This document shows positions 6,001 through 58,700 of a stretch of 64,000 bases of DNA, in pieces. Within the stretch, counting starts at the first letter, position 1. Each line of letters begins with the position of its first letter. The stretch lies in NCBI GenBank assembly GCA_964016885.1, contig OZ024745.1:10602001-10666000 (forward strand), written 5' to 3'. The position numbers and the translations under genes are program-made. The notes under the pieces were generated by a model. The model was not told where the DNA came from. It did no database searches and was given only the letters and a program-made list of their open reading frames with translations. Source of the stretch: Eledone cirrhosa. Taxonomy: Eukaryota.

Positions 6001-9000
6001 TACATCATCATCATCATCACCATAGCCAGTGGTACATCATCATCATCATCATCACCATAGCCAGTGGTACATCATCATCATCATCACCATAGCCAGTGGT
6101 ACATCATCATCATCATCACCATAGCCAGTGGTACATCATCATCATCATCATCACCATAGCCAGTGGTACATCATCATCATCATCATCACCATAGCCAGTG
6201 GTACATCATCATCATCATCATCACCATAGCCAGTGGTACATCATCATCATCATCACCATAGCCAGTGGTACATCATCATCATCATCATCACCATAGCCAG
6301 TGGTACATCATCATCATCATCACCATAGCCAGTGGTACATCATCATCATCATCACCATAGCCAGTGGTACATCATCATCATCATCATCACCATAGCCAGT
6401 GGTACATCATCATCATCATCAACCACCATAGCCAGTGGTACATCATCATCATCATCATCATCACCATAGCCAGTGGTACATCATCATCATCATCATCACC
6501 ATAGCCAGTGGTACATCATCATCATCATCATCACCATAGCCAGTGGTACATCATCATCATCATCATCACCATAGCCAGTGGTACATCATCATCATCATCA
6601 CCATAGCCAGTGGTACATCATCATCATCATCACCATAGCCAGTGGTACATCATCATCATCATCATCACCATAGCCAGTGGTACATCATCATCATCATCAT
6701 CACCATAGCCAGTGGTACATCATCATCATCATCATCACCATAGCCAGTGGTACAACATCATCATCATCACCATAGCCAGTGGTACATCATCATCATCATC
6801 ATCGCCATAGCCAGTGGTACATCATCATCATCATCACCATAGCCAGTGGTACATCATCATCATCATCACCATAGCCAGTGGTACATCATCATCATCATCA
6901 CCATAGCCAGTGGTACATCATCATCATCATCACCATAGCCAGTGGTACATCATCATCATCATCATCACCATAGCCAGTGGTACATCATCATCATCACCAT
7001 AGCCAGTGGTACATCATCATCATCATCAGCCATAGCCAGTGGTACATCATCATCATCATCACCATAGCCAGTGGTACATCAACATCATCATCATCACCAT
7101 AGTCAGTGGTACATCATCATCATCATCATCACCATAGCCAGTGGTACATCATCATCATCATCACCATAGCCAGTGGTACATCATCATCATCACCACCATA
7201 GCCAGTGGTACATCATCATCATCATCACCATAGCCAGTGGTACATCATCATCATCATCACCATAGCCAGTGGTACATCATCATCATCACCACCATAGCCA
7301 GTGGTACATCATCATCATCACCACCATAGCCAGTGGTACATCATCATCATCATCATCACCACCATAGCCAGTGGTACATCATCATCATCATCATCACCAT
7401 AGCCAGTGGTACATCATCATCATCACCACCATAGCCAGTGGTACATCATCATCATCATCATCACCATAGCCAGTGGTACATCATCATCATCATCACCATA
7501 GCCAGTGGTACATCATCATCATCATCACCATAGCCAGTGGTACATCATCATCATCATCATCACCACCATAGCCAGTGGTACATCATCATCATCATCATCA
7601 CCACCATAGCCAGTGGTACATCATCATCATCATCATCACCATAGCCAGTGGTACATCATCATCATCACCACCATAGCCAGTGGTACATCATCATCATCAT
7701 CATCACCATAGCCAGTGGTACATCATCATCATCACCACCATAGCCAGTGGTACATCATCATCATCATCATCACCATAGCCAGTGGTACATCATCATCATC
7801 ATCACCATAGCCAGTGGTACATCATCATCATCATCACCATAGCCAGTGGTACATCATCATCATCATCATCACCACCATAGCCAGTGGTACATCATCATCA
7901 TCATCATCACCACCATAGCCAGTGGTACATCATCATCATCATCATCAACATAGCCAGTGGTACATCATCATCATCATCACCATAGCCAGTGGTACATCAT
8001 CATCATCACCACCATAGCCAGTGGTACATCATCATCATCATCATCACCATAGCCAGTGGTACATCATCATCATCATTACCATAGCCAGTGGTACATCATC
8101 ATCATCATCACCATAGCCAGTGGTACATCATCATCATCATCACCATAGCCAGTGGTACATCATCATCATCATCATCATCATAGCCAGTGGTACATCATCA
8201 TCATCATCATCAACATAGCCAGTGGTACATCATCATCATCATCATCACCACCATAGCCAGTGGTACATCATCATCATCACCACCATAGCCAGTGGTACAT
8301 CATCATCATCATCATCACCACCATAGCCAGTGGTACATCATCATCATCATCATCACCATAGCCAGTGGTACATCATCATCATCATCACCATAGCCAGTGG
8401 TACATCATCATCATCATCATCACCATAGCCAGTGGTACATCATCATCATCATTACCATAGCCAGTGGTACATCATCATCATCATCACCATAGCCAGTGGT
8501 ACATCATCATCATCATCACCACCATAGCCAGTGGTACATCATCATCATCATCATCACCATAGCCAGTGGTACATCATCATCATCATCATCACCATAGCCA
8601 GTGGTACAACATCATCATCATCATCACCATAGCCAGTGGTACATCATCATCATCATCATCACCATAGCCAGTGGTACATCATCATCATCATCACCATAGC
8701 CAGTGGTACATCATCATCATCATCACCATAGCCAGTGGTACATCATCATCATCATCATCACCATAGCCAGTGGTACATCATCATCATCATTACCATAGCC
8801 AGTGGTACATCATCATCATCATCACCATAGCCAGTGGTACAACATCATCATCATCATCACCATAGCCAGTGGTACATCATCATCATCATCACCATAGCCA
8901 GTTGTACATCATCATCATCATCATCACCATAGCCAGTGGTACATCATCATCATCATCACCATAGCCAGTGGTACAACATCATCATCATCACCATAGCCAG

Positions 9001-10668
9001 TGGTACATCATCATCATCATCATCACCATAGCCAGTGGTACAACATCATCATCATCATCACCATAGCCAGTGGTACATCATCATCATCATCATCACCATA
9101 GCCAGTGGTACATCATCATCATCATCACCATAGCCAGTGGTACATCATCATCATCATCACCATAGCCAGTGGTACATCATCATCATCATCACCACCATAG
9201 CCAGTGGTACATCATCATCATCATCATCACCATAGCCAGTGGTACATCATCATCATCATCACCATAGCCAGTGGTACATCATCATCATCATCACCATAGC
9301 CAGTGGTACATCATCATCATCATCACCATAGCCAGTGGTACATCATCATCATCATCATCACCATAGCCAGTGGTACATCATCATCATCATCATCACCATA
9401 GCCAGTGGTACATCATCATCATCATCATCACCATAGCCAGTGGTACATCATCATCATCATCATCATCATAGCCAGTGGTACAACATCATCATCATCATCA
9501 CCATAGCCAGTGGTACATCATCATCATCATCATCATCACCATAGCCAGTGGTACATCATCATCATCATCACCATAGCCAGTGGTACATCATCATCATCAT
9601 CATCATCACCATAGCCAGTGGTGCATCATCATCATCATCACCATAGCCAGTGGTACATCATCATCATCATCATCACCATAGCCAGTGGTACATCATCATC
9701 ATCATCACCATAGCCAGTGGTACATCATCATCATCATCACCATAGCCAGTGGTACATCATCATCATCATCATCATCATCATCACCATAGCCAGTGGTGCA
9801 TCATCATCATCACCATAGCCAGTGGTACATCATCATCATCATCATCACCATAGCCAGTGGTACATCATCATCATCATCATCACCATAGCCAGTGGTACAT
9901 CATCATCATCACCATAGCCAGTGGTACAACATCATCATCATCATCACCATAGCCAGTGGTACATCATCATCATCATCATCACCATAGCCAGTGGTACAAC
10001 ATCATCATCATCACCACCATAGCCAGTGGTGCATCATCATCATCACCATAGCCAGTGGTACAACATCATCATCATCACCACCATAGCCAGTGGTGCATCA
10101 TCATCATCACCATAGCCAGTGGTGCATCATCATCATCATCATCACCATAGCCAGTGGTACATCATCATCATCATCATCATCACCATAGCCAGTGGTGCAT
10201 CATCATCATCATCATCACCATAGCCAGTGGTACATCATCATCATCATCATCATCACCATAGCCAGTGGTGCATCATCATCATCATCATCACCATAGCCAG
10301 TGGTACAACATCATCATCATCACCATAGCCAGTGGTACATCATCATCATCATCATCATCACCATAGCCAGTGGTGCATCATCATCATCATCATCACCATA
10401 GCCAGTGGTACATCATCATCATCATCATCACCATAGCCAGTGGTACATCATCATCATCATCACCATAGCCAGTGGTACAACATCATCATCATCACCATAG
10501 CCAGTGGTACAACATCATCATCATCACCATAGCCAGTGGTACAGCATCATCATCATCACCATAGCCAGTGGTACAACATCATCATCATCACCATAGCCAG
10601 TGGTACAACATCATCATCATCACCATAGCCAGTGGTACATCATCATCATCACCATAGCCAGTGGTACA
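1..10668. repeat. 32-bp compound minisatellite (CAT)4-7 CAC CATAGCCAGTGGTA
   Basis: AGCCAGTGGTA recurs with a modal 32-bp period (e.g. positions 19 and 51); unit length varies in 3-bp steps through the CAT count; the array runs off the left edge. Confidence 0.98.
3643..3842. other. Assembly gap (200 N)
   Basis: Exactly 200 N; the flanking units carry single-base indels typical of low-quality contig ends. Confidence 0.98.
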
Positions 10669-11219: not shown

Positions 11220-11359
11220 GGTGTTGAATGCTTAAAGCGTCCGTATGCGGTAGGCCGTTTGAGCACTCGATGCTCTTATAGAGCAGAGTATGATATCACA
11301 GAAGAAAGAGAATCAGTGTTGCGACGAATGGAATTTATTGGACATATTACATATATGAA

Positions 11360-11900
11360 GTCACCCGGATAGTAAACCAAGTCATACAGAATGGGGTTGT
11401 TCCGAAGGACTGGCGTAGCAGCATCATCGTTAACTGTTACAAGGGTAAAGGAGACGCCCTAGATAGGAGTAACTATAGAGGCATTAAATTAATCGACCAG
11501 GTCATGAAGGTCACGGAAAAAGTAATAGCGCAACTAATCAGAGAGAGAATTGATCTAGATGAAATGCAGTTCGGGTTTGTGTCAGGCAGAAGTACCACAG
11601 ACACTCTTTTCATTGTACGACAACTACAGAAGTACCTAGCTAAAAGTAAACCCCTATACTTAGCTTTTATCGACTTGGAGAAAGCCTTCGACAGAGTCCC
11701 CCGTTCCATTATCTGGTGGGCTCTTAGAAAACTAGGCGTTGACGAATGGCTTGTGAGGGCTATACAAGCCACGTATAAAGAAACAGTCAGCAAGGTTAGA
11801 ATTAACAACGAATATAGTGAAGAGTTTAGCGTAAAAGTTGGTGTCCATCAGGGCTCTGTTCTTAGCCCCCTAATATTTATTATTGCCCTTCAGGCTATAA
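11360..11900 (+). mobile_element. RTE-clade LINE reverse transcriptase fragment
   Basis: In-frame VPKDWRSSIIVNCYKGKGDALDRSNYRGIKLID...QFGFVSGRSTTD...AFIDLEKAFDRVPR...GVHQGSVLSP; these are non-LTR RT motifs, truncated before YADD. Confidence 0.92.
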
Positions 11901-14390
11901 CATTCTGGTGCCATGATAAACACTCAGTCCACCCTTCTAGGTGGTCATTCTGGTGCCATGCTAAACACCCAGTCCACCCTTCTAGGTGGTCATTCTGGTG
12001 CCATGCTAAACACCCAGTCCACCCTTCTAGGTGGTCATTCTGGTGCCATGCTAAACACCCAGACCACCCTTCTAGGTGGTCATTCTGGTGCCATGATAAA
12101 CACCCAGTCCACCCTTCTAGGTGGTCATTCTGGTGCCATGCTAAACACCCAGCCCACCCTTCTAGATGGTCATTCTGGTGCCATTTTAAACACCCAGTCC
12201 ACCCTTCTAGGTGGTCATTCTGGTGCCATGATAAACACTCAGTCCACCCTTCTAGGTGGTCGTTCTGGTGCCATGATAAACACCCAGTCCACTCTTCTAG
12301 GTGGTCATTCTGGTGCCATGATAAACACCCAGTCCACCCTTCTAGGTGGTCATTCTGGTGCCATGATAAACACTCAGCCCACCCTTCTAGGTGGTCGTTC
12401 TGGTGCCATGATAAACACCCAGTCCACTCTTCTAGGTGGTCATTCTGGTGCCATGATAAACACTCAGTCCACCCTTCTAGGTGGTCATTCTGGTGCCATG
12501 ATAAACACTCAGCCCACCCTTCTAGGTGGTCGTTCTGGTGCCATGATAAACACCCAGTCCACTCTTCTAGGTGGTCATTCTGGTGCCATGATAAACACTC
12601 AGTCCACCCTTCTAGGTGGTCGTTCTGGTGCCATGATAAACACCCAGTCCACCCTTCTAGGTGGTCATTCTGGTGCCATGATAAACACTCAGTCCACCCT
12701 TCTAGGTGGTCGTTCTGGTGCCATGATAAACACTCAGTCAACCCTTCTAGGTGGTCATTCTGGTGCCATGATAAACACTCAGTCCACCCTTCTAGGTGGT
12801 CGTTCTGGTGCCATGATAAACACTCAGTCCACCCTTCTAGGTGGTCATTCTGGTGCCATGATAAACACTCAGTCCACTCTTCTAGGTGGTCGTTCTGGTG
12901 CCATGATAAACACCCAGTCCACCCTTCTAGGTGGTCGTTCTGGTGCCATGATAAACACTCAGTCCACCCTTCTAGGTGGTCATTCTGGTGCCATGATAAA
13001 GACTCAGTCCACTCTTCTAGGTGGTCGTTCTGGTGCCATGATAAACACTCAGTCCACCCTTCTAGGTGGTCATTCTGGTGCCATGATAAACACTCAGTCC
13101 ACTCTTCTAGGTGGTCGTTCTGGTGCCATGATAAACACTCAGTCCACCCTTCTAGGTGGTCGTTCTGGTCCCATGATAAACACTCAGTCCACCCTTCTAG
13201 GTGGTCGGTCTGGTCCCATGATAAACACCCAGTCCACCCTTCTAGGTGGTCGTTCTGGTGCCATGATAAACACTCAGTCCACCCTTCTAGGTGGTCGTTC
13301 TGGTCCCATGATAAACACTCAGTCCACCCTTCTAGGTGGTCAGTCTGGTCCCATGATAAACACCCAGTCCACCCTTCTAGGTGGTCGTTCTGGTCCCATG
13401 ATAAACACTCAGTCCACCCTTCTAGGTGGTCGTTCTGGTCCCATGATAAACACTCAGTCCACCCTTCTAGGTGGTCGTTCTGGTGCCATGATAAACACTC
13501 AGTCCACCCTTCTAGGTGGTCGTTCTGGTCCCATGATAAACACTCAGTCCACCCTTCTAGGTGGTCATTCTGGTGCCATGATAAACACTCAGTCAACCCT
13601 TCTAGGTGGTCATTCTGGTGCCATGCTAAACACCCAGTCCACCCTTCTAGGTGGTCATTCTGGTGCCATGATAAACACCCAGTCCACCCTTCTAGGTGGT
13701 CATTCTGGTGCCATGCTAAACACCCAGTCCACCCTTCTAGGTGGTCATTCTGGTGCCATGATAAACACCCAGTCCACCCTTCTAGGTGGTCATTCTGGTG
13801 CCATGCTAAACACTCAGTCCCCCCTTCTAGGTGGTCATTCTGGTGCCATGCTAAACACCCAGTCCACCCTTCTAGGTGGTCATTCTGGTGCCATGCTAAA
13901 CACCCAGTCCACCCTTCTAGGTGGTCATTCTGGTGCCATACTAAGCACCCAGTCCACTCTTCTAGGTGGTCATTCTGGTGCCATGATAAACACCCAGTCC
14001 ACCCTTCTAGGTGGTCATTCTGGTGCCATGCTAAACACTCAGTCCACCCCTCTAGGTGGTCATTCTGGTGCCATGCTAAACACCCAGTCCACCCTTCTAG
14101 GTGGTCATTCTGGTGCCATACTAAGCACCCAGTCCACTCTTCTAGGTGGTCATTCTGGTGCCATGATAAACACTCAGTCCACCGTTCTAGGTGGTCATTC
14201 TGGTGCCATGATAAACACTCAGTCCACCCTTCTAGGTGGTCATTCTGGTGACATGATAAACACCCAGTCCACTCTTCTAGGTGGTCATTCTGGTGCCATG
14301 ATAAACACCCAGTCCACCCTTCCAGGTGGTCGTTCTGGTGCAATGAAAAGCACGCAGTCCACCCTTCTAGGGGGTGGTTCTAGTGTCATG
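11901..14390 (+). repeat. 45-bp minisatellite (~55 copies) derived from the RTE/SINE 3'-tail segment
   Basis: Unit CATTCTGGTGCCATGATAAACACCCAGTCCACCCTTCTAGGTGGT; the right end grades into GGCAAAAAAAGCACCC...TTAGGAAGGGCATCCAGCT (14390-14475), the tail also seen at 21280-21345. Confidence 0.93.
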
Positions 14391-19841: not shown

Positions 19842-21183
19842 CATCATCATCATCATCACCGTTTTACGTCCATTCTTCCAGGCTAGCATGGGTTAGACGG
19901 GTTGGCCTGTTGTGGGCAGTGTCTGGTCGGCTGACCATGCCTTGCTCATACAGGAACTAATTTTGGCTTGATTTCTACAGCTGGATGCCCTTCCTAACAC
20001 CAACCTCATTTACAGTGAGTGCTGGGTGCTTTTTTCCGTGGTGCTTACACGTCCACTTTACAGTGGGAGGGTGTGGGGCATATTGTCTATATGCTTCAGC
20101 TTGTACCCATGGGAGGTCGGGTACTCTGTATTACTGCGTGACGCCAGAGGTCACGGTCGTGTGTCATTGCTCTTGAGAGATGCAACTGAGTAAGGTCGGC
20201 TTTTATCACCTCATCCCAGGTCTTCTTGGGTCTCCCCACTCCGCGGTTTCCATTGACTTCTAGTGCTCTGCACCTTTTTATGCAGCTGTCATCCTTCATA
20301 CGCATCACATGTCCATACCAACGCAACCGCCTCTCCTGCACACAGCATTTGATTCCTCTTATGCTCAGTCTCTCTCTCAATTCATTTATTCTTTGCCATT
20401 CGCGTATATTACTATTACACATCCATCGGAGCATGCAGGCTTCATTTCTTTCTAATCTACGTAAGTCTTCTACCTTCAGCGCCCAGGTCTCACTACCATG
20501 TAACATTGCTGTTCGTATACACCCATCATACAGTCTGCCTTTCATTTTGAGGGAGAAGCCTTTTGCAGCTAGCAGTGGCAGTAGTTCCCTGAACTTTTTC
20601 CATCCCGTTCTTACCCTAGTTATTGTACTTTCTGAACACCCACCTCCGCTGCTAATTCGGTCACCTAGGTAGCAGAAGCTGTCTACTGTTTCTACAGAGC
20701 CCTCCCAGAGATTGGTGGTACTTGTTTCCTGTGGCTGTTTGCTGCTTGCTGTCCCAGCATAGCTGCTACATGTGAAGCCTACATTCTTAATTAAGCTTCC
20801 TGAGATCCTGCTACATCTCTTGTGTACCCATTGTTTGCATTTGGGGCAGAGAATGGAGTCCCTACCTACACCTTTCCTACATAATGAGCAAGGCCATTTC
20901 CCTGAGGGGATCTGGGTTCTGTTTTCTCGTCTACTTACAAGGACCTTAGTCTTTGTCATGTTGACTTTGAGACCCTTTCTTTCTAGTCCCTGCTTCCAAG
21001 TTTGGAATTTCTTCTCTAGTTCTATCATAGATTCAGCTATAAGTGCGTGGTCATCTGCATACAGGAGTTCCCATGGGCATCCGGTCTTAAACTCCTCCGT
21101 TATTGCTTGCAGGACTATGATGAACAGGAGAGGGCAAAGAACAGAGCCCTGGTGAACACCAACCTGTACGCTAAATTCTTCGC
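19842..21183 (-). mobile_element. 5'-truncated RTE-clade LINE (RT C-terminal half, 3' UTR, (GAT)n tail)
   Basis: Open frame 21183-20096: GVHQGSVL...PWELLYADD...GLKVNMTKTK...C-x2-C motifs...FCYLGD...RLRWYGHVMR...GRPKKTW; the 3' UTR ends GGACGTAAAACG(GTG)(ATG)n. Confidence 0.93.
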
Positions 21184-21205
21184 TATATATATATATATAT
21201 ATACA

Positions 21206-21560
21206 GTTTCCTTGCTGTAGAAATGAGATGATAGGGACTGGGGTCCATATCATTCCACTGCAAAGTGGTCGTGGAGGTGCCACGGCAAAAAAGCACCCAG
21301 CACTCACTGTAAATGAGGTTGGTGTTAGGAAGGGCATCCAGCTGTAGAAATCATGCCAGAATCATTTCCCGTCCCACCCTTGCAAGCAGGGAAAAGCGGA
21401 CGTAAAATGATGATGAAGGCGCATGGCTTAGTGGTTAGAGCGCCAGGCTTACAATCCTGAGGTTGTGAGTTTATTTCTCAGACTGGGCTTTGTGTTCTGT
21501 TCTTGAGCAAAACCCTTTATTTGACATTGCTCCAGTTCACTGAGCTGTAGAAATAAGTTT
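21206..21560 (+). mobile_element. SINE 3' half followed by a second SINE head
   Basis: 21206-21416 matches the tail of the 16921-17261 SINE; from 21417 GGCGCATGGCTTAGTGGTTAGAGCG...GAGTTTATTTC is a tRNA-like head. Confidence 0.8.
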
Positions 21561-30530: not shown

Positions 30531-30693
30531 GACTGAGGGTGACAACCGACTGTAGACCCCCCCCCCCCATAGTTTTGCTCGACTAGAAATGCTCGGGGAC
30601 TAAACAACAACTACAGCAACAACAATATAAAGAACGAGAAAGAAATAACAAAAGGAAATAGAAGATGTACTCTTTTATATGTGAGTATATATA

Positions 30694-30742
<49 letters not shown>

Positions 30743-31196
30743 TGTATATATGTATATATATATATATGCATATATATAACGAAAAGTGAGTCGAAACTTA
30801 GACGGCTGTTTTCCACCAATTCGAGGTATATTATTTTTTTACTCTACGAACCTTTTTTTTCGTCACAGCAATAGTGGCCACAGGAATTGGACAATGGTGA
30901 TCACAACCATGACAATTTGAACCATGATAATTTGAGCAAATATTGCAGGGTCATCTATGTCATACTGGTGTTACCTGCTAGGGTTTATTGGTGGATTCTG
31001 TGTCTGGAATTTTCGTTCTTTTTCGTTTCGATGGAATTGTTTGATGTCGGTTTTTGAACGCCACAGTTTCATCACGGCTGTTTCACTACATCACTTTAGG
31101 GCATATCATTCATTTCAACTGGAACATCCTCTGGGAAAGGGCCGTAGGGTACACAGAGTGGGCACTCCTTTGGCTATTACTTCGTTGCGCGAGTTT

Positions 31197-31691
31197 TTAA
31201 CATGGCCCGCATGGTCCACATGGCCCGCATGGCCCACATGACCCACATGGTCCGCACGGTCCACATGGCCCGCACGGTCCACATGGCCCGCAGGGTGCAC
31301 ATGGTCCGCAGGGTGCACATGGTGGATGTGGTACCAGGTGTGATAACATTGAAGAAACCTTCGATTGTTCTGCTACTACCGCAGCCTGTTGACACACAAT
31401 TCGGGCTTGTCTCGAAGCTATTTTCGCTGATTGTCTGGCTACGACAGCTCTACAAGGTTTATTTGGGCAAGCACAGTGACTGTGGCAGTGACCGTGACAA
31501 TGTCCATGGTGGCCGTGGTGGCAATGGTCATGGCAGTTTCCGTGTCCATGACAATGTCCGTGATGTCCATGACAGTGTCCATGACAGTGTCCATGATGTC
31601 CATGGCAGTGTCCATGGTGTCCATGACAGTGATGATGGCATGGGCTATGGGTGTGTAATATAAGGGAATCGGTTACCGAATCACAACTCAT
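31197..31691 (-). CDS. Intronless 164-aa His/Cys/Gly-rich, heptad-repeat, (Cys-Gly-Pro)n protein; probable sperm-tail or metal-binding structural protein
   Basis: AAAC-ATG start, TAA stop, GC-rich island in AT-rich DNA. The repeat codons vary almost only at third positions (TGT/TGC, GGA/GGG, CCA/CCG/CCC), which indicates selection on this frame. Confidence 0.82.
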
Positions 31692-31943
31692 GTTTCTACT
31701 AATTCTTTACAAAATGTCAAAATAAATATTGTATTTTCTCCTCTGAGTTGACACAATTTCGTTTTGGTAAACTGGACTTTATTTTAACAATCTCCTTTCA
31801 GATTGCGAAATCCTAACCAATATAAACAGCTTCGTCTAATAGCCTAAAGTTGTTCAATGAAAAGAGGATAACGGTCAAAGTGTTCCCACTTCACTTGGCT
31901 TTCGATTTGATTATGAAATTTTCAAAAATTACGCGGCAGATCA

Positions 31944-31957
31944 TTATGACGTCATAA
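31944..31957. promoter_or_regulatory. Full CRE (TGACGTCA) within a 14-bp perfect palindrome TTATGACGTCATAA
   Basis: ~255 bp upstream of the 31691 ATG; CCAAT at 31817-31821 and C/EBP-like ATTGCGAAAT at 31802-31811 lie between. Confidence 0.5.
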
Positions 31958-32094
31958 AACATTCTACGTTATAGTTTGACCGTTATAAAGAGATAGAATT
32001 GATATTCTCACGAAATTACAATTATTTGAAAAAACAAAACAAAATAAAAATAAAAATAAAAATAAAATGTAAATTTATGTAACTATAACCATCG

Positions 32095-32397
32095 TTTGTC
32101 ATTGACGTTCTGTGTTCAAATCCCACCGAGACTAGTTTTACATTTCATCCTTAGAGGTTCAAATAAATTAAGGTCCAGTAATTTACTGGGGCCGATTAGT
32201 CGACTTTTCCCTCTTCCCTGGAAACTACAGGCCTTGTGCCTAAATGTAGATAAAAAAAAAAATTTTTTTTTGAATAGTTATACAATAATTGTTTCTACTT
32301 TTGGCACAAGGCCAGCAATTATCCCAGTGTATTACTGGTACTTTATTTTATCGGCCCTGTAAGGATGAAAGGCAAAGTTAAACTCGGCGGGATTTTT
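32095..32397. mobile_element. Two SINE fragments in opposite orientation
   Basis: GTGTTCAAATCCCACCGAG...TTTCATCCTT (+) and TTTATCGGCCCTGTAAGGATGAAAGGCAAAGTTAAACTCGGCGGGATTT (-). Confidence 0.65.
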
Positions 32398-46792: not shown

Positions 46793-49700
46793 GTAGAGAC
46801 TGACACAGTTTGAAAGGAGGATAATAGTTGAGTATCTATTGTAGAGAGTGACACAGTTTGAAAGGAAGTTAATAGTTGAGTATCTATTGTAGAGACTGAC
46901 ACAGTTTGAAAGGAGGATAATAGTTGAGTATCTGTTGTAGAGAGTGAGACAGTTTGAAAGGAAGGTAATAGTTGAGTATCTATTGTAGAGAGTGACACAG
47001 TTTGAAACGAAGGTATTAGTTGAGTATCTGTTGTAGAGACTGACACAGTTTGAAAGGAAGTTAATAGTTGAGTATCTGTTGTAGAGACTGACAGTTTGAA
47101 AGGAAGTTAATAGTTGAGTATCTGTTGTAGAGAGTGACACAGTTTGAAAGGAAATTAATAATTGAGTATCTATTGTAGAGAGTGATACAGTTTGAAAGGA
47201 AGGTAATAGTTGAGTATCTGTTGTAGAGAGTGATACAGTTTGAAAGGAAGTTAATAGTTGAGTATCTATTGTAGAGAGTGAGACAGTTTGAAAGGAAGTT
47301 AATAGTTGAGTATCTATTGTAGAGACTGACACAGTTTGAAAGGAAGTTAATAGTTGAGTATCTATTGTAGAGACTGACACAGTTTGAAAGGAAGTTAATA
47401 GTTGAGTATCTATTGTAGAGACTGACACAGTTTGAAAGGAAGTTAATAGTTGAGTATCTGTTGTAGAGAGTGACACAGTTTGAAAGGGGGTTAATAGTTG
47501 AGTATCTATTGTAGAGACTGACACAGTTTGAAAGGAAGTTAATAGTTGAGTATCTATTGTAGAGACTGACACAGTTTGAAAGGAAGTTAATAGTTGAGTA
47601 TCTATTGTAGAGACTGACACAGTTTGAAAGGAAGTTAATAGTTGAGTATCTGTTGTAGAGAGTGACACAGTTTGAAAGGGGGTTAATAGTTGAGTATCTG
47701 TTGTAGAGAGGGACACAGTTTGAAAGGAGGTTAATAGTTGAGTATCTGTTGTAGAGAGTGACACAGTTTGAAAGGGGGTTAATAGTTGAGTATCTGTTGT
47801 AGAGAGTGACACAGTTTGAAAGGGGGTTAATAGTTGAGTATCTATTGTAGAGACTGACACAGTTTGAAAGGAAGTTAATAGTTGAGTATCTATTGTAGAG
47901 ACTGACACAGTTTGAAAGGAAGTTAATAGTTGAGTATCTATTGTAGAGACTGACACAGTTTGAAAGGAAGTTAATAGTTGAGTATCTGTTGTAGAGAGTG
48001 ACACAGTTTGAAAGGGGGTTAATAGTTGAGTATCTGTTGTAGAGAGGGACACAGTTTGAAAGGAGGTTAATAGTTGAGTATCTGTTGTAGAGAGTGACAC
48101 AGTTTGAAAGGGGGTTAATAGTTGAGTATCTGTTGTAGAGAGTGACACAGTTTGAAAGGGGGTTAATAGTTGAGTATCTGTTGTAGAGAGTGACACAGTT
48201 TGAAAGGGGGTTAATAGTTGAGTATCTGTTGTAGAGAGTGACACAGTTTGAAAGGAAGTTAATAGTTGAGTATCTGTTGTAGAGAGTGACACAGTTTGAA
48301 AGGGGGTTAATAGTTGAGTATCTGTTGTAGAGAGGGACACAGTTTGAAAGGAGGTTAATAGTTGAGTATCTGTTGTAGAGACTGACACAGTTTGAAAGGA
48401 AGTTAATAGTTGAGTATCTGTTGTAGAGAGTGATACAGTTTGAAAGGAAGTTAATAGTTGAGTATCTATTGTAGAGACTGACACAGTTTGAAAGGAAGTT
48501 AATAGTTGAGTATCTATTGTAGAGACTGACACAGTTTGAAAGGAAGTTAATAGTTGAGTATCTATTGTAGAGAGTGACACAGTTTGAAAGGAAGTTAATA
48601 GTTGAGTATCTGTTGTAGAGAGTGACACAGTTTGAAAGGAAGTTAATAGTTGAGTATCTGTTGTAGAGAGGGACACAGTTTGAAAGGAGGTTAATAGTTG
48701 AGTATCTGTTGTAGAGACTGACACAGTTTGAAAGGAAGTTAATAGTTGAGTATCTATTGTAGAGACTGACACAGTTTGAAAGGAAGTTAATAGTTGAGTA
48801 TCTGTTGTAGAGAGTGACACAGTTTGAAAGGAAGTTAATAGTTGAGTATCTGTTGTAGAGAGGGACACAGTTTGAAAGGAGGTTAATAGTTGAGTATCTG
48901 TTGTAGAGAGTGACACAGTTTGAAAGGAAGTTAATAGTTGAGTATCTATTGTAGAGACTGACACAGTTTGAAAGGAAGTTAATAGTTGAGTATCTGTTGT
49001 AGAGAGTGACACAGTTTGAAAGGAGGTTAATAGTTGAGTATCTGTTGTAGAGAGTGACACAGTTTGAAAGGAAGTTAATAGTTGAGTATCTATTGTAGAG
49101 ACTGACACAGTTTGAAAGGAAGTTAATAGTTGAGTATCTGTTGTAGAGAGTGACACAGTTTGAAAGGAATTTAATAGTTGAGTATCTGTTGTAGAGAGGG
49201 ACACAGTTTGAAAGGAGGTTAATAGTTGAGTATCTGTTGTAGAGAGTGACACAGTTTGAAAGGAAGTTAATAGTTGAGTATCTATTGTAGAGACTGACAC
49301 AGTTTGAAAGGAAGTTAATAGTTGAGTATCTGTTGTAGAGAGTGACACAGTTTGAAAGGAATTTAATAGTTGAGTATCTGTTGTAGAGAGGGACACAGTT
49401 TGAAAGGAGGTTAATAGTTGAGTATCTGTTGTAGAGAGTGACACAGTTTGAAAGGAAGTTAATAGTTGAGTATCTGTTGTAGAGAGTGACACAGTTTGAA
49501 AGGAAGTTAATAGTTGAGTATCTGTTGTAGAGAGGGACACAGTTTGAAAGGAGGATAATAGTTGAGTATCTATTGTAGAGAGTGACACAGTTTGAAAGGA
49601 AGTTAATAGTTGAGTATCTGTTGTAGAGACTGACACAGTTTGAAAGGAGGATAATAGTTGAGTATCTGTTGTAGAGAGTGAGACAGTTTGAAAGGAAGGT

Positions 49701-52700
49701 AATAGTTGAGTATCTATTGTAGAGAGTGACACAGTTTGAAACGAAGGTATTAGTTGAGTATCTGTTGTAGAGACTGACACAGTTTGAAAGGAGGATAATA
49801 GTTGAGTATCTATTGTAGAGAGTGACACAGTTTGAAAGGAAGTTAATAGTTGAGTATCTGTTGTAGAGAGTGATACAGTTTGAAAGGAAGTTAATAGTTG
49901 AGTATCTGTTGTAGAGACTGACACAGTTTGAAAGGAGGATAATAGTTGAGTATCTATTGTAGAGAGTGACAAAGTTTGAAAGGAGGATAATAGTTGAGTA
50001 TCTATTGTAGAGAGTGACAAAGTTTGAAAGGAGGATAATAGTTGAGTATCTAGTGTAGAGAGTGACACAGTTTGAAAGGAAGTTAATAGTTGAGTATCTG
50101 TTGTAGAGAGTGATACAGTTTGAAAGGAAGTTAATAGTTGAGTATCTGTTGTAGAGACTGACACAGTTTGAAAGGAGGATAATAGTTGAGTATCTATTGT
50201 AGAGAGTGACACAGTTTGAAAGGAAGTTAATAGTTGAGTATCTGTTGTAGAGAGTGATACAGTTTGAAAGGAAGTTAATAGTTGAGTATCTGTTGTAGAG
50301 ACTGACACAGTTTGAAAGGAGGATAATAGTTGAGTATCTATTGTAGAGAGTGATAGAGTTTGAAAGGAGGATAATAGTTGAGTGTCTAGTGTAGAGAGTG
50401 ATACAATTTGAAAGGAAGTTAATAGTTGAGTATCTGTTGTAGAGAGTGACACAGTTTGAAAGGAGGATAATAGTTGAGTATCTATTGTAGAGAGTGACAG
50501 AGTTTGAAAGGAGGATAATTGTTGAGTATCTATTGTAGAGAGTGACACAGATTGAAAGGAAGTTAATAGTTGAGTATCTGTTGTAGAGAGTGATACAGTT
50601 TGAAAGGAGGATAATAGTTGAGTATCTGTTGTAGAGAGTGACAGAGTTTGAAAGGAGGATAATTGTTGAGTATCTATTGTAGAGAGTGACACAGATTGAA
50701 AGGAAGTTAATAGTTGAGTATCTGTTGTAGAGAGTGATACAGTTTGAAAGGAGGATAATAGTTGAGTATCTATTGTAGAGAGTGACAGAGTTTGAAAGGA
50801 GGATAATTGTTGAGTATCTATTGTAGAGAGTGACACAGTTTGAAAGGAAGTTAATAGTTGAGTATCTGTTGTAGAGACTGACACAGTTTGAAAGGAGGAT
50901 AATAGTTGAGTATCTATTGTAGAGAGTGACAGAGTTTGAAAGGAGGATAATTGTTGAGTATCTATTGTAGAGAGTGACACAGATTGAAAGGAAGTTAATA
51001 GTTGAGTATCTGTTGTAGAGAGTGATACAGTTTGAAAGGAGGATAATAGTTGAGTATCTAGTGTAGAGAGTGATACAATTTGAAAGGAAGTTAATAGTTG
51101 AGTATCTGTTGTAGAGACTGACACAGTTTGAAAGGAAGTTAATAGTTGAGTATCTATTGTAGAGAGTGATACAGTTTGAAAGGAAGTTAATAGTTGAGTA
51201 TCTGTTGTAGAGACTGACACAGTTTGAAAGGAGGATAATAGTTGAGTATCTATTGTAGAGACTGACACAGTTTGAAAGGAAGTTAATAGTTGAGTATCTA
51301 TTGTAGAGACTGACACAGTTTGAAAGGAAGTTAATAGTTGAGTATCTATTGTAGAGACTGACACAGTTTGAAAGGAAGTTAATAGTTGAGTATCTGTTGT
51401 AGAGAGTGACACAGTTTGAAAGGGGGTTAATAGTTGAGTATCTGTTGTAGAGAGGGACACAGTTTGAAAGGAGGTTAATAGTTGAGTATCTGTTGTAGAG
51501 AGTGACACAGTTTGAAAGGGGGTTAATAGTTGAGTATCTGTTGTAGAGAGTGACACAGTTTGAAAGGGGGTTAATAGTTGAGTATCTATTGTAGAGACTG
51601 ACACAGTTTGAAAGGAAGTTAATAGTTGAGTATCTATTGTAGAGACTGACACAGTTTGAAAGGAAGTTAATAGTTGAGTATCTATTGTAGAGACTGACAC
51701 AGTTTGAAAGGAAGTTAATAGTTGAGTATCTGTTGTAGAGAGTGACACAGTTTGAAAGGGGGTTAATAGTTGAGTATCTGTTGTAGAGAGGGACACAGTT
51801 TGAAAGGAGGTTAATAGTTGAGTATCTGTTGTAGAGAGTGACACAGTTTGAAAGGGGGTTAATAGTTGAGTATCTGTTGTAGAGAGTGACACAGTTTGAA
51901 AGGGGGTTAATAGTTGAGTATCTGTTGTAGAGAGTGACACAGTTTGAAAGGGGGTTAATAGTTGAGTATCTGTTGTAGAGAGTGACACAGTTTGAAAGGA
52001 AGTTAATAGTTGAGTATCTGTTGTAGAGAGTGACACAGTTTGAAAGGGGGTTAATAGTTGAGTATCTGTTGTAGAGAGGGACACAGTTTGAAAGGAGGTT
52101 AATAGTTGAGTATCTGTTGTAGAGACTGACACAGTTTGAAAGGAAGTTAATAGTTGAGTATCTGTTGTAGAGAGTGATACAGTTTGAAAGGAAGTTAATA
52201 GTTGAGTATCTATTGTAGAGACTGACACAGTTTGAAAGGAAGTTAATAGTTGAGTATCTATTGTAGAGACTGACACAGTTTGAAAGGAAGTTAATAGTTG
52301 AGTATCTATTGTAGAGAGTGACACAGTTTGAAAGGAAGTTAATAGTTGAGTATCTGTTGTAGAGAGTGACACAGTTTGAAAGGAAGTTAATAGTTGAGTA
52401 TCTGTTGTAGAGAGGGACACAGTTTGAAAGGAGGTTAATAGTTGAGTATCTGTTGTAGAGACTGACACAGTTTGAAAGGAAGTTAATAGTTGAGTATCTA
52501 TTGTAGAGACTGACACAGTTTGAAAGGAAGTTAATAGTTGAGTATCTGTTGTAGAGAGTGACACAGTTTGAAAGGAAGTTAATAGTTGAGTATCTGTTGT
52601 AGAGAGGGACACAGTTTGAAAGGAGGTTAATAGTTGAGTATCTGTTGTAGAGAGTGACACAGTTTGAAAGGAAGTTAATAGTTGAGTATCTATTGTAGAG

Positions 52701-55700
52701 ACTGACACAGTTTGAAAGGAAGTTAATAGTTGAGTATCTGTTGTAGAGAGTGACACAGTTTGAAAGGAGGTTAATAGTTGAGTATCTGTTGTAGAGAGTG
52801 ACACAGTTTGAAAGGAAGTTAATAGTTGAGTATCTATTGTAGAGACTGACACAGTTTGAAAGGAAGTTAATAGTTGAGTATCTGTTGTAGAGAGTGACAC
52901 AGTTTGAAAGGAATTTAATAGTTGAGTATCTGTTGTAGAGAGGGACACAGTTTGAAAGGAGGTTAATAGTTGAGTATCTGTTGTAGAGAGTGACACAGTT
53001 TGAAAGGAAGTTAATAGTTGAGTATCTATTGTAGAGACTGACACAGTTTGAAAGGAAGTTAATAGTTGAGTATCTGTTGTAGAGAGTGACACAGTTTGAA
53101 AGGAATTTAATAGTTGAGTATCTGTTGTAGAGAGGGACACAGTTTGAAAGGAGGTTAATAGTTGAGTATCTGTTGTAGAGAGTGACACAGTTTGAAAGGA
53201 AGTTAATAGTTGAGTATCTGTTGTAGAGAGTGACACAGTTTGAAAGGAAGTTAATAGTTGAGTATCTGTTGTAGAGAGGGACACAGTTTGAAAGGAGGAT
53301 AATAGTTGAGTATCTATTGTAGAGAGTGACACAGTTTGAAAGGAAGTTAATAGTTGAGTATCTGTTGTAGAGACTGACACAGTTTGAAAGGAGGATAATA
53401 GTTGAGTATCTGTTGTAGAGAGTGAGACAGTTTGAAAGGAAGGTAATAGTTGAGTATCTATTGTAGAGAGTGACACAGTTTGAAACGAAGGTATTAGTTG
53501 AGTATCTGTTGTAGAGACTGACACAGTTTGAAAGGAGGATAATAGTTGAGTATCTATTGTAGAGAGTGACACAGTTTGAAAGGAAGTTAATAGTTGAGTA
53601 TCTGTTGTAGAGAGTGATACAGTTTGAAAGGAAGTTAATAGTTGAGTATCTGTTGTAGAGACTGACACAGTTTGAAAGGAGGATAATAGTTGAGTATCTA
53701 TTGTAGAGAGTGACAAAGTTTGAAAGGAGGATAATAGTTGAGTATCTATTGTAGAGAGTGACAAAGTTTGAAAGGAGGATAATAGTTGAGTATCTAGTGT
53801 AGAGAGTGACACAGTTTGAAAGGAAGTTAATAGTTGAGTATCTGTTGTAGAGAGTGATACAGTTTGAAAGGAAGTTAATAGTTGAGTATCTGTTGTAGAG
53901 ACTGACACAGTTTGAAAGGAGGATAATAGTTGAGTATCTATTGTAGAGAGTGACACAGTTTGAAAGGAAGTTAATAGTTGAGTATCTGTTGTAGAGAGTG
54001 ATACAGTTTGAAAGGAAGTTAATAGTTGAGTATCTGTTGTAGAGACTGACACAGTTTGAAAGGAGGATAATAGTTGAGTATCTATTGTAGAGAGTGATAG
54101 AGTTTGAAAGGAGGATAATAGTTGAGTGTCTAGTGTAGAGAGTGATACAATTTGAAAGGAAGTTAATAGTTGAGTATCTGTTGTAGAGAGTGACACAGTT
54201 TGAAAGGAGGATAATAGTTGAGTATCTATTGTAGAGAGTGACAGAGTTTGAAAGGAGGATAATTGTTGAGTATCTATTGTAGAGAGTGACACAGATTGAA
54301 AGGAAGTTAATAGTTGAGTATCTGTTGTAGAGAGTGATACAGTTTGAAAGGAGGATAATAGTTGAGTATCTGTTGTAGAGAGTGACAGAGTTTGAAAGGA
54401 GGATAATTGTTGAGTATCTATTGTAGAGAGTGACACAGATTGAAAGGAAGTTAATAGTTGAGTATCTGTTGTAGAGAGTGATACAGTTTGAAAGGAGGAT
54501 AATAGTTGAGTATCTATTGTAGAGAGTGACAGAGTTTGAAAGGAGGATAATTGTTGAGTATCTATTGTAGAGAGTGACACAGTTTGAAAGGAAGTTAATA
54601 GTTGAGTATCTGTTGTAGAGACTGACACAGTTTGAAAGGAGGATAATAGTTGAGTATCTATTGTAGAGAGTGACAGAGTTTGAAAGGAGGATAATTGTTG
54701 AGTATCTATTGTAGAGAGTGACACAGATTGAAAGGAAGTTAATAGTTGAGTATCTGTTGTAGAGAGTGATACAGTTTGAAAGGAGGATAATAGTTGAGTA
54801 TCTAGTGTAGAGAGTGATACAATTTGAAAGGAAGTTAATAGTTGAGTATCTGTTGTAGAGACTGACACAGTTTGAAAGGAAGTTAATAGTTGAGTATCTA
54901 TCGTAGAGAGTGATACAGTTTGAAAGGAAGTTAATAGTTCAGTATCTATTGTAGAGAGTGATACAGTTTGAAAGGAGGATAATAGTTGAGTATCTGTTGT
55001 AGAGACTGACACAGTTTGAAAGGAGGATAATAGTTGAGTATCTACAGTAGAGAGTGACACAGTTTGAAAGGAGGATAATAGTTGAGTATCTATTGTAGAG
55101 AGTGATACAATTTGAAAGGAAGTTAATAGTTGAGTATCTGTTGTAGAGAGTGACACAGTTTTAAAGGAAGTTAATAGTTGAGTATCTGTTGTAGAGAGTG
55201 ACACAGTTTGAAAGGAAGTTAATAGTTGAGTATCTGTTGTAGAGACTGACACAGTTTGAAAGGAAGTTAATAGTTGAGTATCTGTTGTAGAGACTGACAG
55301 TTTGAAAGGAAGTTAATAGTTGAGTATCTGTTGTAGAGAGTGACACAGTTTGAAAGGAAGTTAATAGTTGAGTATCTGTTGTAGAGAGTGACACAGTTTG
55401 AAAGGAAGTTAATAGTTGAGTATCTGTTGTAGAGACTGACAGTTTGAAAGGAAGTTAATAGTTGAGTATCTGTTGTAGAGAGTGACACAGTTTGAAAGGA
55501 AATTAATAATTGAGTATCTATTGTAGAGAGTGATACAGTTTGAAAGGAAGGTAATAGTTGAGTATCTGTTGTAGAGAGTGATACAGTTTGAAAGGAAGTT
55601 AATAGTTGAGTATCTATTGTAGAGAGTGAGACAGTTTGAAAGGAAGTTAATAGTTGAGTATCTATTGTAGAGACTGACACAGTTTGAAAGGAAGTTAATA

Positions 55701-58700
55701 GTTGAGTATCTATTGTAGAGACTGACACAGTTTGAAAGGAAGTTAATAGTTGAGTATCTATTGTAGAGACTGACACAGTTTGAAAGGAAGTTAATAGTTG
55801 AGTATCTGTTGTAGAGAGTGACACAGTTTGAAAGGAAGTTAATAGTTGAGTATCTGTTGTAGAGAGTGACACAGTTTGAAAGGGGGTTAATAGTTGAGTA
55901 TCTGTTGTAGAGAGGGACACAGTTTGAAAGGAGGTTAATAGTTGAGTATCTGTTGTAGAGACTGACACAGTTTGAAAGGAAGTTAATAGTTGAGTATCTG
56001 TTGTAGAGAGTGATACAGTTTGAAAGGAAGTTAATAGTTGAGTATCTATTGTAGAGACTGACACAGTTTGAAAGGAAGTTAATAGTTGAGTATCTATTGT
56101 AGAGACTGACACAGTTTGAAAGGAAGTTAATAGTTGAGTATCTATTGTAGAGAGTGACACAGTTTGAAAGGAAGTTAATAGTTGAGTATCTGTTGTAGAG
56201 AGTGACACAGTTTGAAAGGAAGTTAATAGTTGAGTATCTGTTGTAGAGAGGGACACAGTTTGAAAGGAGGTTAATAGTTGAGTATCTGTTGTAGAGACTG
56301 ACACAGTTTGAAAGGAAGTTAATAGTTGAGTATCTATTGTAGAGACTGACACAGTTTGAAAGGAAGTTAATAGTTGAGTATCTGTTGTAGAGAGTGACAC
56401 AGTTTGAAAGGAAGTTAATAGTTGAGTATCTGTTGTAGAGAGGGACACAGTTTGAAAGGAGGTTAATAGTTGAGTATCTGTTGTAGAGAGTGACACAGTT
56501 TGAAAGGAAGTTAATAGTTGAGTATCTATTGTAGAGACTGACACAGTTTGAAAGGAAGTTAATAGTTGAGTATCTGTTGTAGAGAGTGACACAGTTTGAA
56601 AGGAGGTTAATAGTTGAGTATCTGTTGTAGAGAGTGACACAGTTTGAAAGGAAGTTAATAGTTGAGTATCTATTGTAGAGACTGACACAGTTTGAAAGGA
56701 AGTTAATAGTTGAGTATCTGTTGTAGAGAGTGACACAGTTTGAAAGGAATTTAATAGTTGAGTATCTGTTGTAGAGAGGGACACAGTTTGAAAGGAGGTT
56801 AATAGTTGAGTATCTGTTGTAGAGAGTGACACAGTTTGAAAGGAAGTTAATAGTTGAGTATCTATTGTAGAGACTGACACAGTTTGAAAGGAAGTTAATA
56901 GTTGAGTATCTGTTGTAGAGAGTGACACAGTTTGAAAGGAATTTAATAGTTGAGTATCTGTTGTAGAGAGGGACACAGTTTGAAAGGAGGTTAATAGTTG
57001 AGTATCTGTTGTAGAGAGTGACACAGTTTGAAAGGAAGTTAATAGTTGAGTATCTGTTGTAGAGAGTGACACAGTTTGAAAGGAAGTTAATAGTTGAGTA
57101 TCTGTTGTAGAGAGGGACACAGTTTGAAAGGAGGATAATAGTTGAGTATCTATTGTAGAGAGTGACACAGTTTGAAAGGAAGTTAATAGTTGAGTATCTG
57201 TTGTAGAGACTGACACAGTTTGAAAGGAGGATAATAGTTGAGTATCTGTTGTAGAGAGTGAGACAGTTTGAAAGGAAGGTAATAGTTGAGTATCTATTGT
57301 AGAGAGTGACACAGTTTGAAACGAAGGTATTAGTTGAGTATCTGTTGTAGAGACTGACACAGTTTGAAAGGAGGATAATAGTTGAGTATCTATTGTAGAG
57401 AGTGACACAGTTTGAAAGGAAGTTAATAGTTGAGTATCTGTTGTAGAGAGTGATACAGTTTGAAAGGAAGTTAATAGTTGAGTATCTGTTGTAGAGACTG
57501 ACACAGTTTGAAAGGAGGATAATAGTTGAGTATCTATTGTAGAGAGTGACAAAGTTTGAAAGGAGGATAATAGTTGAGTATCTATTGTAGAGAGTGACAA
57601 AGTTTGAAAGGAGGATAATAGTTGAGTATCTAGTGTAGAGAGTGACACAGTTTGAAAGGAAGTTAATAGTTGAGTATCTGTTGTAGAGAGTGATACAGTT
57701 TGAAAGGAAGTTAATAGTTGAGTATCTGTTGTAGAGACTGACACAGTTTGAAAGGAGGATAATAGTTGAGTATCTATTGTAGAGAGTGACACAGTTTGAA
57801 AGGAAGTTAATAGTTGAGTATCTGTTGTAGAGAGTGATACAGTTTGAAAGGAAGTTAATAGTTGAGTATCTGTTGTAGAGACTGACACAGTTTGAAAGGA
57901 GGATAATAGTTGAGTATCTATTGTAGAGAGTGATACAGTTTGAAAGGAGGATAATAGTTGAGTGTCTAGTGTAGAGAGTGATACAATTTGAAAGGAAGTT
58001 AATAGTTGAGTATCTGTTGTAGAGAGTGACACAGTTTGAAAGGAGGATAATAGTTGAGTATCTATTGTAGAGAGTGACAGAGTTTGAAAGGAGGATAATT
58101 GTTGAGTATCTATTGTAGAGAGTGACACAGATTGAAAGGAAGTTAATAGTTGAGTATCTGTTGTAGAGAGTGATACAGTTTGAAAGGAGGATAATAGTTG
58201 AGTATCTGTTGTAGAGAGTGACAGAGTTTGAAAGGAGGATAATTGTTGAGTATCTATTGTAGAGAGTGACACAGATTGAAAGGAAGTTAATAGTTGAGTA
58301 TCTGTTGTAGAGAGTGATACAGTTTGAAAGGAGGATAATAGTTGAGTATCTATTGTAGAGAGTGACAGAGTTTGAAAGGAGGATAATTGTTGAGTATCTA
58401 TTGTAGAGAGTGACACAGTTTGAAAGGAAGTTAATAGTTGAGTATCTGTTGTAGAGACTGACACAGTTTGAAAGGAGGATAATAGTTGAGTATCTATTGT
58501 AGAGAGTGACAGAGTTTGAAAGGAGGATAATTGTTGAGTATCTATTGTAGAGAGTGACACAGATTGAAAGGAAGTTAATAGTTGAGTATCTGTTGTAGAG
58601 AGTGATACAGTTTGAAAGGAGGATAATAGTTGAGTATCTAGTGTAGAGAGTGATACAATTTGAAAGGAAGTTAATAGTTGAGTATCTGTTGTAGAGACTG

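Follow-up and report, generated by a model that had tools for sequence, protein, structure and literature searches.

Here we show that an open reading frame (ORF) of 164 codons in the genome of the octopus Eledone cirrhosa belongs to a family of eight rather than standing alone, and that it arose, with little room for doubt, as a processed (intron-less) copy; its parent is a gene of four exons on contig C4. The copy very probably encodes a functional protein. By analogy with sperm proteins of other animals, we lean towards a role as an accessory-fibre protein of the sperm tail, which would be convergent on ODF1 and on the Drosophila Mst(3)CGP proteins and a member of neither group. The window referred to throughout is the whole stretch of 64,000 nucleotides that was analysed (GenBank assembly GCA_964016885.1, contig OZ024745.1, positions 10,602,001 to 10,666,000), and coordinates given without a contig are those of the window.

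The ORF and its segments are laid out as follows, P0007 being a distant relative described further below:

31197..31691, minus strand: single-exon ORF encoding P0001, 164 aa
31641..31691, minus strand: N-terminal peptide, residues 1-17, not hydrophobic, common to all eight family members and weakly to P0007
31467..31640, minus strand: His/Cys/Gly repeat block, residues 18-75, predicted to be disordered and putatively Zn-binding
31341..31451, minus strand: heptad helix, residues 81-117, pattern [AS]-[KRA]-[IV]-x-x-x-Q, predicted coiled-coil element
31200..31316, minus strand: 13 C-[GA]-[PS] triplets and a final Cys, residues 125/126-164

An in-frame stop stands directly before the ATG, in an open frame of 169 aa. 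The 164 residues of P0001 include 34 His, 29 Cys, 23 Gly and 18 Pro; His and Cys together make up 38% of the protein, and Lys and Arg account for 7 of the 164 residues. An earlier note on this DNA had described a His/Cys/Gly repeat block, a middle helix with a seven-residue period, 13 C-[GA]-[PS] triplets and the lack of a signal peptide, and this description stands, with the block now delimited to residues 18-75 and one last Cys added to the triplets. In residues 82-121 the score at lag 7 was reached by none of 5000 shuffles, while each of the nine other lags in the tested range of 2-11 gave p ≥ 0.05. The AlphaFold2 model of P0001, computed from an alignment of 6 sequences, consists of one helix (residues 81-117, pLDDT 83-96) and no strands, with pLDDT below 70 outside the helix and a mean of 57. 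The heptad periodicity thus falls within the modelled helix, and a coiled coil is predicted. We infer that the His/Cys/Gly block binds Zn. Hydropathy gave no indication of a signal peptide, the best 8-residue Kyte-Doolittle mean within the first 30 residues being 1.3.

The tail is made up of 10 CGP, 2 CAP and 1 CGS triplets, and none of the window's five remaining frames has a C-[GA]-[PS] run longer than a single triplet. Variation among the repeats is mostly synonymous, as had been claimed, in that 16 of the 19 minority bases among the 13 units lie at third codon positions, although the tail holds only 7 distinct 9-nt units, so that independent events are few. Contigs from three runs (X1-X3), which behave as genomic DNA of one sample and may be source data of the assembly, cover the ORF with no indels and one synonymous difference at 31236. 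A plus-strand ORF of 153 aa lying over the gene was rejected as a shadow of the repeats.

The genome searched comprises 3.0 Gb in 1,796 contigs. Hemocyanin genes of the molluscan type are present (39 matches), and one hemocyanin exon reached its highest per-stretch score on PDB chain 1js8, the Octopus structure, with 651 bits as against 568 for the runner-up. The heptad segment identified three loci besides the window, and the N-terminal pattern gave the same four, while the 5' non-coding DNA matched eight places (the window, C12, C28, C1, C3, C4 at 207.9 Mb, C9, and exon 1 of the parent), adding the copies on C1, C3, C4 at 207.9 Mb and C9. The family consists of the parent and seven intron-less copies, which are dispersed over contigs C1, C3, C4, C5, C9, C12 and C28.

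C4 375,745,800-375,809,400: parent gene, four exons, predicted spliced product of 583 aa

Exon 1 of the parent is non-coding and is separated by 51 kb from the remainder of the gene, which lies downstream of it at 375.8 Mb on C4; a large exon with the ATG carries the His block, the heptad and a long CCPP/CPP repeat, and is followed by a 35-nt micro-exon and the last exon. The gene model was built from splice signals and from the intron-less copies, with junctions predicted from GT-AG sites, and all three introns (50,926, 7,115 and 3,500 nt) are of this type; an extra small 5' exon was sought in the parent and not found. The predicted protein of 583 aa is 31% Cys and 37% Pro, with 89 CPP units.

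All seven intron-less copies are open from the common ATG, over 139-242 aa, and they differ in the modules that they retain. Copies C28 and C3 stop directly after a shortened heptad; C1 and C9 have no heptad and keep the C-terminal domain; C4b runs out of frame before its heptad. The state of C4b, C1 and C9 implies that modules are dispensable. The C-X-P (CxP) repeats differ as well, being CPP in the parent, mixed CAP/CVP/CEP in C12 and CGP in the window copy. The proline codons in the CGP run of the window copy are CCA/CCG; the (CGP)7 run of copy C9 is written in different codons and sits elsewhere, within the last-exon domain, so that CGP runs arose at least twice within the family.

The processed origin of the ORF is evident from the colinearity of the window sequence with the parent across all three predicted splice junctions:

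31747..31767, minus strand: parent junction 1 crossed, in the 5' leader; the 50,926-nt intron is missing
31018..31039, minus strand: parent junction 2 crossed; the 7,115-nt intron is missing
30990..31005, minus strand: parent junction 3 crossed, after the 35-nt micro-exon; the 3,500-nt intron is missing
30576..30843, minus strand: parent-derived 3' non-coding sequence, broken by a (TA)n run
11294-14248: reverse-transcriptase ORF fragment (PF00078, E 3e-20)

Junction 1 is crossed in all seven dispersed copies, and the 3' junction region could be aligned in six of them, the exception being the rearranged C9. Dispersed loci and homology confined to the neighbourhood of the transcript, both hallmarks of retrogenes, are found here, and the reverse-transcriptase fragment places retroposition machinery at hand within the window. 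The copies are old, with dS of about 0.2-0.6 per branch, and neither a poly(A) remnant nor a target-site duplication was evident in the 3' alignment. About 22 nt of 5' leader are common to all seven copies and missing from the parent, and the tree of the 5' region is a star in which none of five inner branches is supported. The family may therefore have passed through one processed intermediate that was then copied at the DNA level, as an alternative to separate retroposition of each copy.

Parent-derived sequence extends upstream of the ORF and includes the best conserved element of the region:

31692..32097, minus strand: parent-derived 5' region (leader and likely promoter)
31944..31957: 14-bp palindrome TTATGACGTCATAA, 263 nt upstream of the ATG
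31947-31954, within the palindrome: perfect CRE TGACGTCA, the sole CRE octamer of the window

The 5' region is 84% identical to the parent over 232 aligned nt. All eight family members keep a CRE-type palindrome, at a distance of 237-280 nt from the ATG on its upstream side. Four of them (window, parent, C3 and C4b) have a perfect TGACGTCA, and the other four depart from it by one base. Among 283 upstream segments of 14 nt, this one is the most strongly conserved, with 4 departures over the eight members as against a mean of 1.66 per column. Homology to the parent continues beyond the CRE for about 140 nt in the window copy, 127 nt in C3 and 82 nt in C9, ending within about 150 nt of the element, and the CRE may lie either in an inherited promoter or inside the leader. 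CRE sites are widespread and are not restricted to testis. The element is the binding site of CREB/CREM, and Odf1 and Smcp are among the transcripts that fall in Crem-null mouse testis, according to the available part of PMC10454534; by analogy with the mouse, we infer CREM-like control of the octopus copies. Retrogenes with parent-inherited promoters likewise carry parent-derived sequence upstream, and the portion available of PMC4772013 puts retrocopies that inherit the parental promoter at about 3% of those expressed in mammals, whereas here the CRE region is kept in 7 of 7 copies. The family is a compact case of growth by retroposition, in which a regulatory element was kept and repeat modules were re-invented copy by copy.

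The window copy was truncated by a new stop after its (CGP) tail, which removed the C-terminal domain of the parent, and the DNA beyond this stop provides an internal standard for decay:

30844..31141, minus strand: decayed remains of the parent C-terminal domain, downstream of the stop

This old tail is 77.5% identical to the parent over 276 aligned nt, with 8 frameshifting gaps in those 276 nt, and the part that stems from the last exon contains 3 stops. Across the 66 core codons that can be aligned between window copy and parent there is no frameshift and no stop, and at the gap rate of the old tail the chance of finding no frameshift in 198 nt is 0.003. Pairwise comparison over the same codons gave dN 0.22, dS 1.36 and a ratio of 0.16. 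Most of this constraint is the parent's, since a three-taxon maximum-likelihood codon model assigned dN/dS of 0.03 to the parent, 0.21 to C12 and 0.41 to the window branch (dS 0.57), the last not significantly below 1 (LRT p=0.055). Parsimony on the window branch counted 24 non-synonymous and 10 synonymous changes (ratio 0.66, p=0.18). The 19 replacements on this branch are conservative, with a mean BLOSUM score of 0.89 as against -0.38 under random change (p=0.0002). In neutral simulation the 66-codon core escaped stops in 14-55% of runs, depending on the rate, and the whole ORF survived in 0.15-18% (1% at 0.3 and 0.15% at 0.5 substitutions per site), figures that include the repeats, which may be young.

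It is possible to read these data as those of a processed pseudogene or decaying gene, left open by chance and lengthened by recent in-frame repeat growth, with no useful protein, and the non-significant window-branch ratio, the parsimony counts, the lost C-terminal domain and the broken sibling C4b all point that way. We regard this as unlikely: the core is intact beside an old tail riddled with frameshifts, the replacements are conservative, whole-ORF survival at 0.3 and 0.5 substitutions per site is low, and the 5' region with its perfect CRE has stayed closer to the parent than the old tail has. The absence of core frameshifts together with the conservative replacements leads us to regard the ORF as a functional gene whose constraint has loosened, with relaxed selection likely still acting on the window copy. 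The parent gene, with its dN/dS of 0.03, is the better target for functional work.

The family is undescribed and has no named homologue in the searches run. Pfam scans of P0001, P0002 and P0003 gave no family above threshold, the only match of P0001 being a sub-threshold one to collagen (E 0.024); a sequence search of the PDB gave no match, and none of three family proteins was present by exact look-up in a collection of 15 billion. The ESM Atlas held no usable match to P0001 or P0007, word-based homologue searches returned nothing for P0001 72-125 and P0003 1-125 among near lengths or for P0007 1-115 among longer ones, and scans of metagenomes, for which P0007 and the core alignment served as queries, gave no confirmed match. 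A heptad profile searched against 1.84 billion representatives produced five matches, of which P0007 was retained; P0004, P0006, P0008 and P0005 were rejected as relatives, these being repeat-driven matches in unrelated repetitive proteins. P0007, encoded on a 49.8-kb contig, matches the profile over its full length; it has the heptad and the N-terminal motif as well as a short run of Cys, and is 49% identical to the parent over 55 aa. It has no His block and no CxP repeats, and judged from these sequences the heptad scaffold is therefore likely to be older than the repeat modules. The earlier note had called the protein lineage-specific, which agrees with the data for the His block and the repeats and fails for the N-terminus and the heptads, both of which occur in P0007. 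Low-complexity genes such as these are easily missed by annotation.

Resemblance to known sperm proteins extends to motifs and architecture. The Mst(3)CGP genes of Drosophila are described, in the part of PMC10645079 available to us, as testis-specific, with Cys-Gly-Pro repeats, and needed for normal sperm tails. These genes (Mst84Da-d, Mst87F) and the ORF share tandem Cys-Gly-Pro, small size and membership of a multigene family, but the likeness is one of a low-complexity motif only, the His block and the heptad helix being additions of the ORF. The parent has CPP rather than CGP, which argues that the CGP run of the ORF is a secondary growth, independent of that in Mst(3)CGP. Searches with the non-repeat core matched no fly protein, and to this extent there is no sign that the ORF descends from the Drosophila genes. 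ODF1 has C-X-P repeats and a putative leucine zipper, according to the accessible part of PMC8913478. ODF1/HSPB10 and the ORF thus have in common C-terminal C-X-P repeats and a helical segment (serving self-association in ODF1), but ODF1/HSPB10 contains an alpha-crystallin (HSP20) domain that is missing from the ORF, as judged from the Pfam scans of P0001, P0002 and P0003 and from the single-helix model. The HSP20 family gave 8 matches in the genome, falling into 6 loci because two were second domains of the same genes, and at the 6 loci inspected no two CxP units stand in succession within 1.5 kb.

Nine outer dense fibres are present in the sperm of Octopus vulgaris, together with a fibrous sheath, as reported in the available portion of PMC11753710. 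An axoneme surrounded by nine dense fibres is a feature that octopod sperm share with those of mammals. Two papers by Baccetti et al. (1976) reportedly deal, by their titles, with zinc binding, high-sulfur components and accessory fibres in mammals and cephalopods, and the predicted properties of the ORF fit the cephalopod accessory-fibre proteins as far as these titles go. The open-access literature yielded no cephalopod sequence for zinc-binding or high-sulfur fibre proteins, and a literature search yielded no paper on octopus retrogenes in testis.

A sperm-tail role is suggested by the octopus dense fibres and fibrous sheath, the conserved CRE, the seven heritable copies, the motif shared with Mst(3)CGP and ODF1, the zipper segment of the latter (each as given in the partial sources above), and the absence of a CxP run near the 6 HSP20 loci. 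Heritable processed copies require germ-line mRNA, and seven of them would imply that this mRNA was abundant. In such a scheme, retrotransposition in the male germ line would have produced a C-terminally truncated, intron-less copy, whose expression in spermatids would be driven by a CREB/CREM-type factor acting at the inherited CRE. In the cytosol the protein would polymerise through its heptad helix, and its His/Cys clusters would serve to bind Zn and, as long as assembly lasts, to keep thiols in the reduced state. Oxidation would follow, joining the cysteines of (CGP)n and CH/HC in an elastic, insoluble fibre whose final site would be the outer dense fibres or fibrous sheath. Copies with different repeat type and length would tune the fibre. 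More tentatively, and with somewhat greater doubt than conviction, we suggest that the family as a whole could be the zinc-binding, high-sulfur accessory-fibre material, a heptad protein having gained repeats, given rise to seven CRE-carrying retrogenes and acquired CGP tails at least twice.

Cross-linked intracellular proteins also occur in somatic tissues, and the ORF could belong to sucker cuticle cells, beak or radula epithelium or skin, as an analogue of keratin-associated or cornified-envelope proteins, though we find this improbable. Squid beak is hardened by His-rich proteins, which speaks for a somatic product, but beak proteins are secreted, and the ORF has no signal peptide by hydropathy. 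The 89 CPP units of the parent, and a Pro/Cys/Gly-rich composition like that of epidermal differentiation proteins, would suit such a product, and intracellular Cys/Pro-rich proteins also form cornified skin structures according to the accessible part of PMC10791643; set against this are the abundant germ-line mRNA that seven heritable processed copies suggest and the occurrence of the CGP motif in sperm proteins, as the partial sources cited above describe it.

Other compartments of the sperm cell share the germ-line arguments for the sperm-tail role, and a Cys-rich nuclear protein, an SMCP-like protein of the mitochondrial capsule or an acrosomal or perinuclear scaffold could be envisaged, each of which we consider quite improbable. 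A cysteine-rich protamine, said to occur in Eledone, would be the model for the nuclear variant, but 7 Lys and Arg in 164 residues are too few for a DNA-condensing protein, and the heptad helix fits fibre assembly. SMCP and the epidermal differentiation and keratin-associated proteins are not known to have a His block or a heptad; the CCPP repeats of the parent, which we take to resemble SMCP, would favour the mitochondrial variant. SMCP, the epidermal differentiation complex and the keratin-associated proteins resemble the ORF in their intracellular Pro/Cys repeats and potential for disulfide cross-linking. SMCP is testis-enriched and, in the available text of PMC10791643, arose in placental mammals, so that it cannot be homologous to the ORF. 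His/Cys zinc bridges stabilise sperm chromatin, as stated in the accessible portion of PMC6321397, which is in keeping with a nuclear site. The heptad helix is conserved, and the proteins of the family vary freely in repeat length, over 139-583 aa. A metallothionein-like store or detoxifier of Zn, Cu or Cd, suggested by the 38% His and Cys and by a small, cytosolic protein, is very unlikely, given that metallothioneins are not known to have a conserved heptad helix or freely varying repeat lengths, that no Pfam metallothionein match was found at E up to 10, and that conservation upstream is strongest in a CRE.

If the sperm-tail role is correct, octopods would be a third animal lineage converging on the ODF1/Mst87F design, from an unrelated scaffold, and the family would supply named candidates that make molecular convergence of sperm-tail materials testable.

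A CRE 16-mer is also found at unrelated loci of the genome. Its excess (35 as against 2) was rejected as a sign of a regulon, since most of the copies belong to a tandem repeat on C5. This repeat, at 12.5-13.1 Mb (L045-L062) and also on C1091 and C1240, comprises nine tandem units about 98% identical, many of them ~17 kb apart and each with an 18-bp perfect palindrome around the CRE. Elsewhere on C5, at 112.69 Mb (L063:1751-3016), an ORF for glycogen phosphorylase (PF00343, E 5e-117) that runs for at least 422 aa without interruption starts 234 nt from a copy of the 16-mer and is possibly another intron-less, testis-type retrogene. Two near-identical 72-codon ORFs or first exons on C2, at 296.7 and 297.0 Mb (L038, L039), start about 175 nt downstream of the 16-mer.

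The remainder of the window is rich in repeats. The reverse-transcriptase fragment at 11294-14248 runs into a 45-bp minisatellite of 55 copies (11901-14390), and on the minus strand positions 20099-21361 hold a second RT-like fragment. Between 40000 and 45800 lie complex tandem duplications, which measure 0.5-1.5 kb, are 90-97% identical and each carry an (ATGT)n tract, and long satellites with a strong strand skew, of a 32-bp unit (x324) and a 48-bp unit (x359), occupy 1-10668 and 46793-64000.
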